NCBI GenBank assembly: GCA_034667685.1
Contig: JAXDQU010000079.1
Location: 44,107-108,106, forward strand
Source of the DNA: Thermoplasmata archaeon
Lineage (GTDB): Archaea > Thermoplasmatota > SW-10-69-26 > JACQPN01 > JAJPHT01
Length of the DNA: 64,000 nucleotides
Reading direction: 5' to 3'
Made by a program: the position numbers and the translations under genes. Of the stretch, positions 1,791-59,921 are shown piece by piece. The notes beneath the pieces were generated by a model that made no database searches, was not told the DNA's origin, and worked only from the letters and a program-made list of their open reading frames with translations. Numbering within the stretch: position 1 is the first letter of the stretch; each line of letters starts with the position of its first letter.

Positions 1791-2102
1791 ATGGCTCACA
1801 CCGCCCGCATCAGCCTCGCCGGCAACGACCCCAAGAAGATCGACGGCGTCGCAGGCCAGATCAAGACCATCGCGGAGCGCACCGGCGTCCGCATCGCCGG
1901 CCCAATCCCGCTCCCGACGCGCCGCCTCAACATCCCCGTCCGCAAGGCGCCCAACGGCTCCGGCTCGGAGACGTACGACCACTGGGAGATGCGCATCCAC
2001 AAGCGCCTCATCGACATCGACGCGGACGAGCGCGCCCTGCGCCAGCTCATGCGCATCCAGGTCCCCGACTCGGTGAACATCGAGATCGTTCTGAGGACCT
2101 GA
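1791..2102 (+). CDS. rps10: 30S ribosomal protein uS10 (archaeal type)
   Basis: [11 protein letters not shown]...GPIPLPT...[26 protein letters not shown]...VNIEIVLRT. Confidence 0.96.
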
Positions 2103-2180
2103 GCCGCAGCGAAGGCCGAAGAACGGTCTCGATAGGCCGGACCGAAGTCCGGCCGTGTCGAGATCGTCCTGCGCACCTGA
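2079..2180 (+). mobile_element. Mini hairpin insert duplicating the rps10 3' end
   Basis: ATCGAGATCGTTCTGAGGACCTGA (2079-2102), inverted partial copy (2120-2133), hairpin GGCCGGACCGAAGTCCGGCC, second copy GTCGAGATCGTCCTGCGCACCTGA (2157-2180). Confidence 0.7.
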
Positions 2181-2681: not shown

Positions 2682-3254
2682 ATGAGCCGCGTCGCCTTGC
2701 TGCGTGCCGGGTATGCGGCGTTCTGCGTCGCGTTCCTCGCCGTGGCCGTGACCATCCAGGGCGTGGGCGTCGCGTTCTTCCTCGGCCTGCTCGCCGCGCT
2801 GGCCGCGGGCTTCCTCCTGGCCTTCTCGCGGGACGAGCTTCCCAAGTGGGCCGGGCTCGCGCTCCTGGCGTACTTCGGCCTCACGATCCTCGCGTTCCTC
2901 GCCGCCACGCCCGTCACGATCGACAAGGGCGGGGGATACTTCGTGAACGACAAGCCCTCCGCGACGTTCCAGGCCGTCTCGGGCTACCTGGTGCTCGCGT
3001 TCCCGATCATGCTCGGCGGCGCCGCGCTGGCGGCTGCGTGGGAGCGCGAGCGCGGGCCCAAGACACTGCTCTTCGCGGCGCTCGCGGCCTCCGTGGTCTG
3101 GGCGGTCCTCTCCTTCGCCCTCCTGCCGCCCAGCGCGCAGGCCACCGCCGCGCAATCGCAGAACCACCTGCTCGACCTTCTCGCCATCGTCGCGTGCCTC
3201 GTGGGCGCGGCGGGCGCGCTCTGGGCCGCGCTGCGCCCCGACGAGTACGCATGA
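2682..3254 (+). CDS. Hypothetical multi-pass membrane protein
   Basis: 190 aa, about 6 hydrophobic helices, host codon usage. Confidence 0.75.
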   Translation: MSRVALLRAGYAAFCVAFLAVAVTIQGVGVAFFLGLLAALAAGFLLAFSRDELPKWAGLALLAYFGLTILAFLAATPVTIDKGGGYFVNDKPSATFQAVSGYLVLAFPIMLGGAALAAAWERERGPKTLLFAALAASVVWAVLSFALLPPSAQATAAQSQNHLLDLLAIVACLVGAAGALWAALRPDEYA

Positions 3255-3814
3255 TCGCGATCGTGCTCTACGAGGGCGCGAGCGCCTTCGAGGCCCTGGG
3301 CGCGCTGGCCGCGCTCCGCGCCGCGGACGAGCCCGCGAGGCTCGTGGCCGCCGAGGCGCTCGTGCCCACGCGCGAGGGGGCGCGCCTCGTCCCGCACGCC
3401 TTGGGCTACGACGCGCTCGCCGAGGCGCCGGCGGTCGTGCTTCCGGGCGGCGACGTCGCGAAGCCGCTCGCCGACGCCGCGCTCCTGCGCGCGCTCCGCG
3501 CCCGCCGCGGCCGCTGGCTCCTCACCTCGGGGGACGCGCTGCGCCTCGCCGCCGCCGCGGGGTACGCCGAAGGCCGCCGCGTCGCGACGCTCCCGGGCGA
3601 GCCCGTGCTCTCCGGCACGCACGGCGTGGGATCGCGCCTGGTCGCCGACGGCCGTCTCCTGACGTGCTTTCCCGGCGATCCGCTCGTCGACCTCGTCCTC
3701 CACTGGGTCGAGCGCGAGCGCGGAAGCCCTGCCGCCGCGCGCGCCGCGCATGCCCTCGGGCGCGAGCTGCGCACGTTCGCGGAAGGCGCGAAGGATGATG
3801 CGCCCGCGGCCTGA
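3251..3814 (+). CDS. DJ-1/PfpI family protein (catalytic Cys apparently absent)
   Basis: MIAIVLYEG, VVLPGG, LVADGRLLT; LLTSGDA where the family has xCxG; ATGA overlap with upstream gene. Confidence 0.7.
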   Translation: MIAIVLYEGASAFEALGALAALRAADEPARLVAAEALVPTREGARLVPHALGYDALAEAPAVVLPGGDVAKPLADAALLRALRARRGRWLLTSGDALRLAAAAGYAEGRRVATLPGEPVLSGTHGVGSRLVADGRLLTCFPGDPLVDLVLHWVERERGSPAAARAAHALGRELRTFAEGAKDDAPAA

Positions 3815-9745: not shown

Positions 9746-10651
9746 ATGACCGCCTCCGGCCTCTCGAAGCCGCGCTGGCTGCTGCGTCCCCTGCCCAGCG
9801 GGCCGAAGGTCGCGCAGATCCAGGGCCTTCTTGCGGAGCACGGCCTGCACACGGTGTGCGAGGAGGCGCGCTGCCCCAATCGCGGCGAGTGCTGGAGCCA
9901 GGGCGAGGCGACGCTCATGATCCTGGGCGACACGTGCACGCGCGCGTGCCGTTTCTGCGACGTGGCGACGGCGACGAAGGGGCAGATCCTTCCGATCGAT
10001 CCGCTGGAGCCCGCGAAGGTGGCGAACACGGTCAAGACGCTCGGGCTGACGTACGCCGTCATCACGAGCGTGGACCGCGACGAGCTGGAGGATCAGGGCG
10101 CGGACCACTGGGCGCGCACGATCCAGGCGATCCGCTTCCTCTGCCCCGAGACGGTGATCGACGTCCTTCTCCCCGATTTCCGCGGCGATCGCGCGCTGAT
10201 CCGGAAGGTCGTCGACGCGAAGCCCCACGTGCTCGCGCACAACGTCGAGACCGTGGAGCGCCTGCAGGACAAGGTGCGCGACCACCGCGCGAGCTATCAG
10301 CAGACGCTCGACGTGCTGCGCGCGTTCAAGGAGATGAGCCCGCGCACGCCCACCAAGAGCGGCGTCATGGCGGGGCACGGCGAGACGCGCGAGGAAATGA
10401 TCTCGACGCTGCGCGACCTCCGGGCGGCGGGCGTCGACTTCGTCACCATCGGCCAGTACCTGCGGCCCAGCGAGTGGCACCTCAAGGTCGAGGAGTTCGT
10501 CCACCCCAACGACTTCGTGGCCTACGAGCAGGCCGCCTGGAGCATGGGGTTCAAGCACGTCGTCGCGGGGCCCTTCGTGCGCTCCAGCTACCGCGCGTGG
10601 GAAGTCGAGAAGATCGTGCGCGACGCGCATGGCGCCAGCAAGAACCCTTAA
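9746..10651 (+). CDS. lipA: Lipoyl synthase
   Basis: CEEARCPNRGEC, CTRACRFC, VRSSY. Confidence 0.96.
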   Translation: MTASGLSKPRWLLRPLPSGPKVAQIQGLLAEHGLHTVCEEARCPNRGECWSQGEATLMILGDTCTRACRFCDVATATKGQILPIDPLEPAKVANTVKTLGLTYAVITSVDRDELEDQGADHWARTIQAIRFLCPETVIDVLLPDFRGDRALIRKVVDAKPHVLAHNVETVERLQDKVRDHRASYQQTLDVLRAFKEMSPRTPTKSGVMAGHGETREEMISTLRDLRAAGVDFVTIGQYLRPSEWHLKVEEFVHPNDFVAYEQAAWSMGFKHVVAGPFVRSSYRAWEVEKIVRDAHGASKNP

Positions 10652-22145: not shown

Positions 22146-22307
22146 ATGACGCGCAGGATGGAGGACGCGCTGGTCGCCAGCGCCATCGGCCTGCTGCTCT
22201 TCGCCGCGCTCTGGAACGCGCCCGTCGCCGCGCTCCTGAGCATCCTCGTGCTCGCCTGGACGCTGGCCCGCGAAAGCACGCGCGGACGCGCGAGGCCGAA
22301 GGGTTAG
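22146..22307 (+). CDS. 53-aa two-TM microprotein with WNAP motif
   Basis: MTRRMEDALVASAIGLLLFAALWNAPVAALLSILVLAWTLARESTRGRARPKG. Confidence 0.55.
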   Translation: MTRRMEDALVASAIGLLLFAALWNAPVAALLSILVLAWTLARESTRGRARPKG

Positions 22308-22481
22308 CGCCCGCGCATCTCCCACGTCGTCTTCTTCACGAACGCGTCCATGGAGCCCTTCCGCTCGCACCCTTTTTGCGCGAGCGCGCAGCGCTCGCGC
22401 AAAAAGCGCGCCCGGAAAGCGGGCTACTTGCCCCGCATCTCCCACGTCGTCTTCTTCACGAACGCATCCATCGAGCCCTTC
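22304..22481 (-). mobile_element. Hairpin insert between two copies of the dehydrogenase 3' end
   Basis: 58-bp near-direct repeats 22304-22361 and 22424-22481; perfect 16-bp stem with GCA loop at 22372-22406. Confidence 0.75.
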
Positions 22482-24313
22482 TGGTCCTCGGTCGCAAAGC
22501 ACTGCGACACCGCTTCGAGCTCGTAGGCCAGGCCCGTGTTGAGGTCGACGTCCAGGCCGCGGTTGACGCTCGCCTTGGCGAGGCCGACGGCGACGGGCGC
22601 GTTCTTCGCGATCGCGTTCGCGAGCGCCATCGCGCGCTTCATGAGCTCGGCTGCGGGCACGACGTCGAGGACGAGCCCGAGCGCCTTGGCCTCGGCGGCG
22701 TCGAAGCGGCGCGCCGTGAAGATCAGCTCCTTGGCCTTCTGGGGCCCGATGAGGCGCGGGAGGCGCTGCGTGCCGCCGAAGCCGGGGTGGATGCCCAGCG
22801 TGACCTCGGGCAGCGCGAAGAGCGCCTTGTCCGAGGCCAGGATGATATCACAGGCGAGGGCCAGCTCCAGCCCGCCGCCGAACGCGAAGCCGTTGACCGC
22901 CGCGACGACGGGCTTGCCGCACAGCTCCAGCTCGCGGATGGCGCGCTGGCCCAGCTCGGTGAAGCGGCGCGCGTCGGCCACGGTCTTCGTCGCCATCTCC
23001 TTGATGTCGGCGCCCGCGATGAAGGACTTCTGCCCCTCGCCGGTCACGACGAGCACGCGCACCTCGGGGTCCGCGGCCGCGGCCTGCACCTGCTTCTGGA
23101 AGTCCATGAGGACCTTGTTGTTGAGCGCGTTGAGCGCGTCGGGCCGGTCGAGGGTGAGCACGCCGACGTGCCCCTCCTTCTCGAAGCGCACGAGCGGCAG
23201 GTCCCACGGCGCGTTCGCGGCGCCCAGGCGGCGCAGCTCGGCCGCGACCGGGAAGCTCGCGCCCCACTTGGCGTGCAGCTTCTCCACGAGCGCGAGCGCC
23301 CGCTTCGTGCCCATGGCGTTCATCATCGCGAAGGGGCCCTTGGCCCAGCGCAGGCCGACCGTCGCGCCCTTGTCGGTGTCCACGGCGGTGGCGACGCCCT
23401 CCTCGACCAGGCGCGCCGCGATGCCGAACGTGACGCCGAGCAGGCGCTCCTGCACCGCGACGAACTTCGCGGGGTCGGGCGTGCCCGCGAGATCCCAGTT
23501 GGCCTTCGCGACCTCGACCTGGTGGACGAGCTTCGCCGCGGGCGCATACGCCTCGCCGAAGCCCTGGTGCAGCGTGCGCTCGGCGTGCAGCGAGATCGGG
23601 ACGCCGGTGACGTTCATCAGCTCGAAGGGACCCATCGTGATGCCGAACGCCTCCTTCGCCGCGGCGTCGATCGTGCTGATATCAGCGACTCCTTCCTCCA
23701 GCAGCCGGACGGCCTCGTTGACCCACGGCACGAAGAAGCGGTTCACCGCGAAGCCGTACGCGTCCGCCGTCGGGATGGGCACCTTGCCGATCGCGCGCGT
23801 CACCTTCACGAGCGCGTCCGTCGTCGCCGCGTCCGTCTCGCGCCCCGCCACGACCTCGACGAGCTTGTTGACCGCCGCCGGGAAGAAGAAGTGCATGCCC
23901 CCGAACTGGCGCGGGCGGTCGGTCGCCGCCGCGATGTCGGACACCGCGAGCGAGGACGTGTTCGTCGCAAAGATCGCGCCTGGCTTCGCGTGCCTCGACG
24001 CCTCCGCGAAGACCTCCTTCTTGACCTTCAGGTCCTCGAAGACGGCCTCGATCACGAGGTCCGCGTCCTTCACCGCCGCGTGCAGGTCCGTCGTGCCATT
24101 CAGCCGCGCCATGATCGCGTCGACCTCCCCCGCGCTCTGCTTGCCCTGCTCGACGCGCTTGCGAAGCGGGCCCTCGATCCGTGCCCGCCCCTTCTCGACG
24201 AGCTCGGGCTTGACGTCCCGCATCTGCACCTCGAAGCCGGCTTGCGCGAACGCCTGCGCGATGCCCGACCCCATGTTGCCCGCGCCCAGCACGGCGACCT
24301 TCTGGATGGCCAT
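22424..24313 (-). CDS. 3-hydroxyacyl-CoA dehydrogenase / enoyl-CoA hydratase fusion
   Basis: VLGAGNMGSGIA, ATNTSSL, GMHFFFP, MGPFELM; C-terminal crotonase FIAGADI, GGGLELAL, PGFGGTQRLPR. Confidence 0.95.
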   Translation of the reverse strand: MAIQKVAVLGAGNMGSGIAQAFAQAGFEVQMRDVKPELVEKGRARIEGPLRKRVEQGKQSAGEVDAIMARLNGTTDLHAAVKDADLVIEAVFEDLKVKKEVFAEASRHAKPGAIFATNTSSLAVSDIAAATDRPRQFGGMHFFFPAAVNKLVEVVAGRETDAATTDALVKVTRAIGKVPIPTADAYGFAVNRFFVPWVNEAVRLLEEGVADISTIDAAAKEAFGITMGPFELMNVTGVPISLHAERTLHQGFGEAYAPAAKLVHQVEVAKANWDLAGTPDPAKFVAVQERLLGVTFGIAARLVEEGVATAVDTDKGATVGLRWAKGPFAMMNAMGTKRALALVEKLHAKWGASFPVAAELRRLGAANAPWDLPLVRFEKEGHVGVLTLDRPDALNALNNKVLMDFQKQVQAAAADPEVRVLVVTGEGQKSFIAGADIKEMATKTVADARRFTELGQRAIRELELCGKPVVAAVNGFAFGGGLELALACDIILASDKALFALPEVTLGIHPGFGGTQRLPRLIGPQKAKELIFTARRFDAAEAKALGLVLDVVPAAELMKRAMALANAIAKNAPVAVGLAKASVNRGLDVDLNTGLAYELEAVSQCFATEDQKGSMDAFVKKTTWEMRGK

Positions 24314-30187: not shown

Positions 30188-30826
30188 TCAAGCGGCGCTG
30201 GGCGCGCGGAAGGCCGCGAGCATCGCCACGAACGCCACGGCCAGAAGCACGGCGGCCCACGCGGGCGGCACGACGGTGGCGATCCACCCCAGGAGCGTGC
30301 CCAGGCCGGTCCACGCGCACGACCACACGACGCACGCCACCAGCGAGAGCACCAGGAACACGCCCGGCTCCATGCCGGCCTTGCCCGAGGCGTAGGCGAG
30401 GCGGGCGCGGTCGCGCGTCGAGAACTTCGCGGCCAGGAACCGCGAGAGCGGCGCGCGGGCCAGCCCGTCGCTCAGGTCGTCCACGTCGAGCCCCGCGCGC
30501 CACCACGCGCCGTGCCGCCGCATCGTGCGCAGCGGGCGCAGGCGGTACCAGGCGTAGAACGCGACGTCCGAGAGGAACGCGCCGGCGAGCGCGGCCGCGA
30601 AGAGCGCGACGGAGGGCCCGCGCCACGCGGTCGCGATGCACGCCACGGCCGCGAAGCCGAGGTGGCCGGGCACGTAGCGCCCCCAGAGCGGCACCGCCTC
30701 CAGCGAGGCGACGAGGAAGAGGACGAGCGCGTAAGCCGCATCGGGGCCCCAGGCCGGGAACATCGTGCGCGTTGAGGCGCGGGGTGACATAAGCGCCTCG
30801 GTTTGGATGCGGACCGCAAAGCGCAC
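30188..30826 (-). CDS. DedA/VTT family membrane protein (start uncertain)
   Basis: LE...VPG, GAFLSD..FY, AKF; hydrophobic profile. Confidence 0.7.
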   Translation of the reverse strand: MRFAVRIQTEALMSPRASTRTMFPAWGPDAAYALVLFLVASLEAVPLWGRYVPGHLGFAAVACIATAWRGPSVALFAAALAGAFLSDVAFYAWYRLRPLRTMRRHGAWWRAGLDVDDLSDGLARAPLSRFLAAKFSTRDRARLAYASGKAGMEPGVFLVLSLVACVVWSCAWTGLGTLLGWIATVVPPAWAAVLLAVAFVAMLAAFRAPSAA

Positions 30827-59316: not shown

Positions 59317-59389
59317 AGCCCCATGGTCTAGTGGCCAATGATTCGGGACTTTGGATCCTGCGACCTCGGTTCGAATCCGAGTGGGGCTA
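59317..59389 (+). tRNA. tRNA-Gln(TTG)
   Basis: AGCCCCA/TGGGGCT acceptor, CGGGA-CTTTGGA-TCCTG anticodon arm, GGTTCGAATCC. Confidence 0.95.
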
Positions 59390-59468
59390 TGCTCGGAGCG
59401 CAGCGACGAGCATCGCCCCGCGAGGATGAGGCCGAACCGCAGTTCGGCCGGAATCCGAGTTGGGCTAT
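59373..59468 (+). mobile_element. Mini hairpin insert duplicating the tRNA-Gln 3' end
   Basis: GAATCCGAGTGGGGCTAT (59373), inverted copy (59407-59427), hairpin GGCCGAACCGCAGTTCGGCC, then GAATCCGAGTTGGGCTAT (59451). Confidence 0.75.
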
Positions 59469-59482
59469 CAAAATCGTCGCGT

Positions 59483-59776
59483 TCAGCACGTGTCCAGGAT
59501 CCACGTGGGGCCGCCGCCGGTCAGGCAGACGTAGGCGATGGGGCCGTAGGTCTGCGGGTCGATCCAGGGGCAGTGGGTCGTGAGGACGCAGACGGGGCCG
59601 TCGTTGCCGACGGTGTAGCCGTCGATCGTCTTGTTCTCGGTGCAGGCGTAGACGACGCCGAAGTTCTGGATCCAGATGATCTGGGTGCAGTGGGCGGGGA
59701 TGCCGATGCTGGCGCTCGCGGCGGGAAGGGTGGCAAGGGCGGCCAGGAGGGCGAGGAGGGCGAAGGTCGGTCGCAT
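59483..59776 (-). CDS. Small secreted 6-Cys protein
   Basis: Signal peptide ending ASA; 6 Cys including the C-terminal residue. Confidence 0.7.
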   Translation of the reverse strand: MRPTFALLALLAALATLPAASASIGIPAHCTQIIWIQNFGVVYACTENKTIDGYTVGNDGPVCVLTTHCPWIDPQTYGPIAYVCLTGGGPTWILDTC

Positions 59777-59921
59777 GCGTCCCGCGGATGGGCGTGGGGG
59801 ACAAGAACGTGGTGGGCAGCGGCGAGGTTGCATGCCGCCGCGGCGCGGCCGGCCCGGACGCGCGCGTGGGGCAGCATGCTATCAAAAAAGAAAGGCAGGG
59901 GCGCGTGGCCCCCACGGGCGC

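Follow-up and report, generated by a model that had tools for sequence, protein, structure and literature searches.

Why should the last bases of an intact tRNA gene be found again a few dozen nucleotides downstream, with an inverted copy of the same bases and a hairpin in between, and why should a ribosomal protein gene in the same DNA end in the same manner? This question is raised by the tRNA-Gln(TTG) gene of the window examined here, i.e., the whole stretch of DNA that was analysed (64 kb, G+C content 72%). We compared the window with the rest of its own assembly (G000; 3.48 Mb in 124 contigs) and with eight other genomes of the same archaeal family, f1 (G001 to G008), all of the compared genomes being metagenome bins. 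Throughout, T denotes the gene-proximal tail, T' the antisense tail, T2 the displaced distal tail and core the conserved hairpin; positions given without a contig refer to the window.

Architecture of the tRNA-Gln and rps10 inserts

The tRNA-Gln(TTG) gene occupies positions 59317..59389 on the plus strand (ARAGORN; Rfam RF00005, 56.9 bits). Its last 17 bases are shared with T (59373..59390, plus strand), the functional tail of the intact tRNA, which runs from the T-loop to the discriminator plus one base and is an exact copy of the 18-mer GAATCCGAGTGGGGCTAT. The original prediction was that this 18-mer recurs at 59451 with one mismatch, and it does: T2 (59451..59468, plus strand) agrees with it at 17/18 nt. 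At ≤3 mismatches, GAATCCGAGTGGGGCTAT has two matches in the window, and two matches were reached in 0/100 shuffles. The single mismatch, G to T, would unpair 6:67 in the acceptor stem (pairing derived from the sequence), and ARAGORN shows that tRNA-Gln stays intact using T. Here the tRNA uses T, which leaves T2 as a dead tail. The insert between the two tail copies spans 60 nt and holds no gene.

Next to T stands a cap hairpin, GCTCG-GAGCGCAGCGA-CGAGC (59391..59411, plus strand; sequence and predicted fold), which tops a rod formed by T and T' and carries CGCAGCGA in its loop (59399..59406, plus strand; from the sequence). The cap contains GCGCAGC, an instance of the GCGNAGC mini-hairpin motif, and similar cap motifs (GCGAAGCGAA, GCCGCAGCGAA and GCGTAGCGAA) come after the new stop codon of other cassettes. 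The stability claimed beforehand for GNA-type loops is in line with this cap, whose GCGNAGC type fits a DNA mini-hairpin motif called extraordinarily stable (PMC13037366). T' (59412..59427, plus strand) repeats the tail in inverted orientation. According to the predicted ssDNA fold, it pairs with T through a stem that includes a symmetric 2x2 GA/GA internal loop, which agrees with the tandem GA/GA that had been proposed for this stem. A K-turn reading of the tandem GA was rejected by inspection, the internal loops being symmetric (2x2 or 2x3) and without a 3-nt bulge.

The core of this insert is a type B hairpin, AGGCCGAAC-CGCA-GTTCGGCCG (59429..59450, plus strand; pattern search and covariance model), with GA on its 5' side and GRA on its 3' side. 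As single-stranded DNA, the unit is predicted to fold as the T:T' rod plus the core hairpin, with z = −3.5 on one strand and −3.3 on the other. An Rfam 15 scan of the 64-kb window returned only two tRNAs at the gathering score. Beyond the insert, a 116-aa frame on the minus strand (59483-59833) ends 15 nt past T2; judging from its hydrophobic, signal-like start and Cys-rich sequence, it may be a small secreted protein.

A sister cassette lies behind rps10 (2080..2180, plus strand; sequence and fold), whose S10 protein we take to be archaeal-type from its translation. It comprises T (EIVLRT*, 2080-2102), a cap (2103-2113), T' (2114-2133), a type A core AGGCCGGAC-CGAA-GTCCGGCCG (2134-2155) and T2 (2158-2180), all on the plus strand. 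T2 again encodes EIVLRT* and differs from T by gtt/gtc and agg/cgc, and the ssDNA fold of the insert gave z = −4.7 and −3.8 for the two strands. One pattern describing the hairpin shared by rps10 and tRNA-Gln matched only these two places in the window and 0/100 shuffles, and the stem change between the two is compensatory (A-T to G-C), as had been claimed. At both loci, the gene ends with T, and T2 is left behind as a silent end whose differences are conservative; this is the hallmark of gene-end replacement. Read-through translation into T2 was considered and discarded by inspection: an in-frame TAG stands between T and T2 at rps10, and the T2 of a gene on contig C9 (hereafter the C9 gene) is out of frame. 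The third and last unit of the window is an end-duplication at a FadB-like gene (22304..22490, minus strand; sequence). Here, two ~64-nt copies of the 3' end, ending ..WEMRGK* and ..WEMRGR*, are parted by another GC hairpin, and the type A/B core is absent.

Core hairpins across the archaeal family

A strict regular expression for the hairpin matched 11 times in the whole G000 assembly, and a wider pattern 17 times, versus 0 for the reversed pattern. Among 41 genomes, the wider pattern was found in the window's own family only, with matches in 4/8 of the other family genomes and in 0/32 genomes of other families. We aligned 28 cores (20 from G000 and eight from relatives), which form 27 distinct rows; the pattern that collected them let non-complementary bases stand at variable positions, and none occurred. 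Across the 27 distinct cores, the 8-bp stem was 100% paired and three pairs carried compensatory changes, among them pair 12-21 (16 A-U, 11 G-C) and pair 13-20 (18 A-U, 6 G-C, 2 G-U and 1 C-G). The target-derived helix that flanks the core was 75% paired, with covariation at 4/4 pairs, and the covariation score of the alignment was matched by 0/500 shuffles.

At E ≤ 0.01, a covariance model of the core recovered 32 copies in G000, 22 in G008, 13 in G003, five in G007, two each in G001, G004 and G005, one in G002 and none in G006, so that copies are present in 7/8 of the other family genomes. Such a model had been proposed as the check on the rps10/tRNA-Gln hairpin, with a lack of further instances and of covariation as the outcome speaking against a common family. 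That outcome did not occur: many further copies were found in G000 and its relatives, and the stem covaries.

Core type one reads GAY-A-GGCCGGNC-CGNA-GNCCGGCC-G-T-GTC and core type two GA(G)-A-GGCCGAAC-CGNA-GTTCGGCC-G-RA; variants with longer loops exist, and type A/B cores stand at >12 different genes. Some cores carry extra hairpins of 30-40 nt in the loop, e.g., AGGACGAA..35 nt..TTCGTCCG (L161 = G008:C51; also L245 and L243), so that the core can serve as a shell that encloses additional inserts.

Type A and type B cores were both absent from a viral contig collection (2/2 scans). A scan of metagenome contigs gave three core matches, two of which are seemingly the loci at G003:C37 and G008:C62, and the third resembles C68/C108. 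With a loose hairpin pattern, at least 119 stretches were matched in GTDB genome contigs; among the matches listed, nearly all were bacterial, many of them from high-GC genomes such as Streptomyces, and these bacterial stretches are chance matches. A pair search for a larger element with hairpin halves as its terminal repeats gave noise only.

Two further repeats were observed in G000. A region of ~200 nt at 84% identity occurs at G000:C11:51560-51750 and C111:12590-12790, and also at C11:64482-64529 and C120:1057-1102. In this region, three hairpins come after a long palindrome (GTCAGGTGACTAGACAGGTGAC .. CAGGTGTCTAGTCACCTGAC), the third of them being a type B core; the region may represent an operator or the terminus of a larger element. 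Downstream of rpoN (G000:C19, about 3250-3400), a short repeat was found that occurs at >30 places in G000 and at several in G003.

Duplicated gene and tRNA ends genome-wide

Outward from the gene, the general order is gene body, T (with stop), cap, T', core and T2 (with stop). This layout is clear at 3' ends and inside the HflX gene, and partial at one 5' end and at one other internal insert. The parts of a cassette are the working end T, a small GC cap (often the GCGNAGC mini-hairpin), the antisense T' and a conserved hairpin core of 22-50 nt. The cassette brings a working end ahead of the displaced T2, and the gene therefore stays intact.

Duplicated ends were also searched for without using the hairpin sequence. 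The last 21 nt of a gene recurred 10-260 nt downstream at ≥17/21 for 22/3,490 gene ends, these ends being crude candidates, and for 0/3,490 with the reversed query. Long duplicated tails of 36, 55, 71 and 100 nt were found, with several other hairpin types between the copies. The last 18 nt of tRNA genes recurred within 305 nt at ≥15/18 for 11/48 tRNAs (control 0/48). Among the 32 model hits outside the training set, the T2 16-mer was present upstream at ≥13/16 in 12/32 (control 0/32), and several further diverged T/T2 pairs were recognized by eye. Overall, the repeat length varies from about 11 nt to about 100 nt. A filter for 10-mer inverted copies was weak in GC-rich DNA (11 cases versus 3 in the control) and was not used for case selection.

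The proposal of a single family, uniform in architecture, that targets tRNA as well as protein-gene ends is thus upheld by many instances genome-wide and in relatives, and by a shared hairpin that covaries. That the tRNA-Gln insert belongs to a family of non-coding DNA cassettes carried by the uncultured archaea of f1 is well supported.

Other hairpin families, type C among them, show the same T/T2 layout, and a general recombination process, rather than one element, could consequently be involved. The type C repeat, of about 85 nt, begins GGCTTATCGCCCCCG.. and ends ..GCCGGCTGG..CCAGCC. It separates T from T2 at four loci, two of them protein genes and two of them tRNAs, namely at G000:C111:18935-19021, on C81 (minus strand) behind the stop at 30289, at C68:31442-31538 and on C41 behind tRNA-Leu(TAG), and at least seven copies are present in G003. 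We also observed that tRNA-Arg(TCT), located 26.5 kb before the window (G000:C79:17572-17732), is followed by two extra tails, i.e., three stacked in all; each extra tail is preceded by a TGACC-GCAG-GTCA-type cap and an antisense arm, forming a stacked pair of cassettes. On the same contig, C79:9800-11700 contained no frame resembling a rolling-circle Rep.

Presence and absence in relatives

The end of rps10 is plain (empty) in G003, the closest relative. In G008, which belongs to another genus, it shows the T-T'-core-T2 layout with a covarying core, and in G004 it carries nested copies. In G002 (L004, G002:C13 about 10190-10450), rps10 ends in a perfect 110-nt tandem repeat composed of the last 86 nt plus 24 nt of flank, which is either a very recent duplication or an assembly effect. 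The tRNA-Gln of G004:C48 is 100% identical to that of the window and lacks the insert; the one on G003:C27 is also empty, and both run into unrelated DNA. In G008, a cap and T' stand behind tRNA-Gln, followed by a decayed core.

The end of a BCCP-like gene that carries a cassette in G000 is empty in 4/4 relatives. The end of rpoN has one unit in G000; in G004 the tails number three and are stacked, with a different hairpin; G005 has two, and in G003 a cap-like GCGCAGCGAAGGCGC is all that was found. Related units follow the C9 gene in G000, G002, G003, G004 and G008, with none in G001. At the same gene, a native covarying hairpin with the stop codon in its loop is present in G000-G004 and G008, including the core-free G001.

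Contigs from four soil DNA runs, two of which are possibly the source of this DNA, contained no joint across the insert. No insertion intermediate, enzyme or excision event was seen. In soil run X4, two 151-nt pieces end to the left and right of the cassette, which is typical of unitigs that run into repeats.

Comparison of working, antisense and displaced tails

Codon differences between T and T2 were counted in 17/22 strong repeats (T2 stop kept, spacer ≤130 nt), trimmed by a nucleotide rule. The T2 stop is kept in 17/22 strong repeats, the spacer is ≤130 nt in 16 of them, and C106:41674 is without the stop. We counted 24 synonymous, 5 non-synonymous and 4 stop-to-stop differences in the 17 repeats, with three of the five non-synonymous changes sitting in one probable chance hit; synonymous swaps of two and three bases, such as agg/cgc and agt/tcg, also occur. 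The five excluded repeats (T2 without stop or spacer >130 nt) gave 3 synonymous and 8 non-synonymous differences, and some of them look like other repeats or chance matches. Because the differences are almost only synonymous, T and T2 appear to behave as two functional alleles, which would not be the case for a neutrally decaying silent copy. For the same reason, the earlier suggestion that the inserts are rolling-hairpin copies made in situ is not supported, as it cannot explain this pattern.

In 13 cassettes, with the differing sites masked in the alignment, T' complements T at 15/20 informative sites, T2 at four and neither at one. T' thus tracks T, and T-cap-T' evolves together as a single unit. 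The same count led us to reject a snap-back origin of T2 from T', since T' follows T and not T2.

As to which copy is new, T2 of the BCCP-like gene equals some relative at 5/6 differing codons and T at 3/6, with both doing so at two, and its T uses unusual A/T-ending codons. At rps10, T2 equals the G004 allele and T carries agg. Comparisons of this kind at the BCCP-like gene, at rps10 and at the 5' end of a gene on contig C39 (the C39 gene, below) point to T as the probable incoming copy in these three cases. At the C9 gene and rpoN, T is like the alleles of the closest relatives and T2 like a more distant one, and the direction is ambiguous there because those relatives carry cassettes or remnants too. 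In young copies, T is identical or nearly identical to T2.

One core at unrelated targets, inside genes and at a 5' end

An identical 49-nt core follows both tRNA-Ile(GAT) and a protein gene with the terminus ..EDMDF*, and BLAST finds only these two copies. The adjoining arms fit each copy's own target, with T nearly identical to T2. An identical core with different arms implies that the arms were rewritten at the new target, which would be the behaviour of a mobile element, unlike that of a recombination scar. The caps differ between the two copies in spite of the shared core and do not point to one defined mobile unit.

Copies are also found within reading frames. The HflX gene contains an in-frame 51-nt unit with its own T, a CGAA-capped T' and T2, and alignment with the eight other family genomes revealed no hairpin at the insertion point in any of them. 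A second gene has an in-frame insert of 42 nt that is absent in G003 and G004, and G001 has a different hairpin insert at this spot. At the 5' end of the C39 gene, T lies nearest the gene body, followed by the core and then T2, and the antisense arm measures only about 8 nt. The outer copy (T2) retains the native ATG start (MRRVVLFD), and the inner copy is preceded by GGAGGTG, which may give a new start. In relatives, no core was found at this 5'-end locus. The 5'-end cassettes are oriented opposite to transcription, and transcription cannot set the polarity of a cassette, given that 3' and 5' ends share the order body-T-core-T2.

How the cassettes may move, and what else they might be

Our best reading, favoured with moderate confidence, is that of a DNA-level gene-end replacement cassette that takes aim at a new target by copying it and is subsequently exchanged among lineages through recombination. 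We infer two steps for its movement. In the first, copy-back or template switching at the DNA level, probably on single strands or linked to replication, would bring the core to a new target. Copy-back would write the target into the arms, giving young copies in which T = T2 and the arms are target-matched, and the two stable hairpins would serve as turn-arounds; this would explain identical cores at new targets. In the second step, the T-cap-T'-core unit would later pass between related lineages by recombination, the conserved gene body acting as one homology arm and T2, possibly paired with T' around the hairpin, setting the other junction. Pairing of T' with the native tail around the core would place the joint exactly where the pairing ends, and exchange between lineages would explain T and T2 as functional alleles with synonymous differences.

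A bolder version, which we put forward tentatively and regard as possible but doubtful, is an enzyme-less, self-folding mobile DNA aimed by base pairing. The core strand would fold, the antisense arm would pair with the target end, and host replication or repair enzymes would fill the arms with a copy of the target and ligate the rod into place, such that the address would be rewritten at every hop and the entered gene always repaired. Recombination of the cassettes as folded ssDNA would be an attractive possibility. Integron attC sites and CTX attP recombine as folded single strands, and the cassettes are likewise short imperfect palindromes in which structure is conserved over sequence and for which a folded single strand is plausible. 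They differ from attC in that the centre is conserved and the arms are target-derived, which is the reverse of attC, and in that the target end is duplicated.

Among the alternatives, the original prediction had named remnants of attachment sites. A virus or plasmid with a tyrosine integrase and a replacement end could have integrated and lost its interior, leaving attL, a few arm bases and attR as a mini cis-mobilisable remnant that a related integrase may move in trans. The insert is flanked by direct repeats of the target end, as attL and attR would flank it, and the tRNA repeats begin in the T-loop, where one class of integrase att sites starts. Tails of tRNA genes are hot spots for integrative elements, too. 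The tandem stacks of units (rpoN of G004 with three tails, G008 loci L252 and L244) resemble the tandem accretion of CIMEs (PMC5704250). Prophage e14 supplies the end of icd and the native fragment remains as the icdC pseudogene (PMC13626634); in e14 and phage 21 at icd, as in tRNA-targeting islands, the incoming DNA brings a working 3' end, and in the e14/icd type the native end is pushed downstream, silent and with mostly synonymous differences. Nonetheless, we consider such remnants unlikely. Integrative elements have one attachment specificity per family, which cannot give an identical 49-nt core with different arms at two unrelated targets, whereas one cassette core serves many unrelated targets with rewritten arms. 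The variable repeat length of about 11 to 100 nt, the antisense target copy, which has no counterpart in att sites, and the copies in frame inside genes and at a 5' end also speak against them, as does the absence of the core from viral contigs in 2/2 scans. The cassettes, unlike integrative elements and CIMEs, measure 40-110 nt and have neither gene nor integrase. At the stacked tRNA-Arg(TCT), no far att copy of the tail was found on its contig.

That the inserts are purely recombination scars seems improbable to us. In such a case, the gene end of a related lineage, together with its native hairpin flank, would have been placed before the native end, with homology serving one junction and an illegitimate join the other, and no mobile element would be involved. 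The almost exclusively synonymous T/T2 differences are in line with this, as are the likeness of T2 to relatives' alleles (rps10, BCCP-like gene) and the native, covarying stop-codon hairpin at the C9 gene, core-free G001 included. At rhs/CDI loci, C-terminal displacement proceeds by one-sided homologous recombination: a new end recombines in and the old one stays downstream as an orphan. The new end there is kilobases long and changes the function, whereas the cassettes leave the protein unchanged and have a conserved hairpin at the joint. Scars would also have to account for several further observations: the same core recurs at 32 places in G000, beside T2 in unrelated genes; a tRNA and a protein gene share the identical 49-nt core, both with T = T2, which indicates young in-situ events; the in-frame insert of HflX has a T, a T' and a T2 that belong to it; and the join coincides in every case with the point at which pairing of T' stops (flank helix).

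An ordinary small transposon (MITE or REP-like), with T and T2 as its target-site duplication, is still less probable. Young copies with T = T2, the varying presence and absence among relatives and the palindromic core would fit it, but the duplication varies in size (about 11 to 100 nt), unlike that of DDE-type MITEs, which is of fixed length and identical at birth; the inverted third copy T' is unaccounted for, and we know of no transposase that makes one; and diverged T/T2 pairs differ synonymously, not neutrally. No recombinase was linked to the cassettes, and the Y1 HUH transposases (PF01797) of REP/RAYT and IS200/IS605 systems were found in 0/9 family genomes, the control search finding them in 6/14 known genomes. 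BIMEs and REPs with RAYT, and palindromic elements derived from IS200/IS605, are likewise GC-rich extragenic hairpins in dozens of copies, often behind genes, but REP elements neither duplicate nor replace gene ends. Rickettsia palindromic elements are likewise small hairpins tolerated in frame in coding genes. Similarly, mitochondrial double-hairpin elements are small hairpin pairs, tolerated in coding or rRNA genes and potentially mobile without an enzyme of their own (PMC10085805); such elements differ from the cassettes in having no target or antisense copy and no gene-end replacement.

A functional RNA kept by selection is very improbable, be it a pair of 3'-UTR hairpins for transcript termination or stability, or a small RNA antisense to the tail of the tRNA or mRNA. 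Strong predicted folds, a location directly after stop codons and the conserved, covarying stop-codon hairpin at the C9 gene are in its favour. Against it stand T2, for which it gives no explanation, the 5'-end cassettes that run opposite to transcription, the copies inside reading frames, the restriction of Rfam matches in the window to two tRNAs, and the equally good folding of both strands.

Implications of the gene-end replacement cassettes

A full-text literature search found no description of such cassettes. The gene-end-replacing hairpin cassette is real and recurrent and apparently an undescribed kind of DNA. For annotation, cassettes explain the silent gene-tail copies and partial tRNA genes behind many loci. 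If they are mobile, essential genes (rps10, rpoN, tRNAs) can be entered harmlessly by gene-less DNA of about 50-100 bases that brings a spare end along, and the re-aiming of one core at unrelated targets, by copying them into its arms, would be a new principle of target choice; the cassettes would also offer a natural template for small, scar-tolerant insertion tags. Finally, displaced tails form a fossil record of past alleles, making recombination between lineages of uncultured, presumably soil-dwelling archaea directly measurable.
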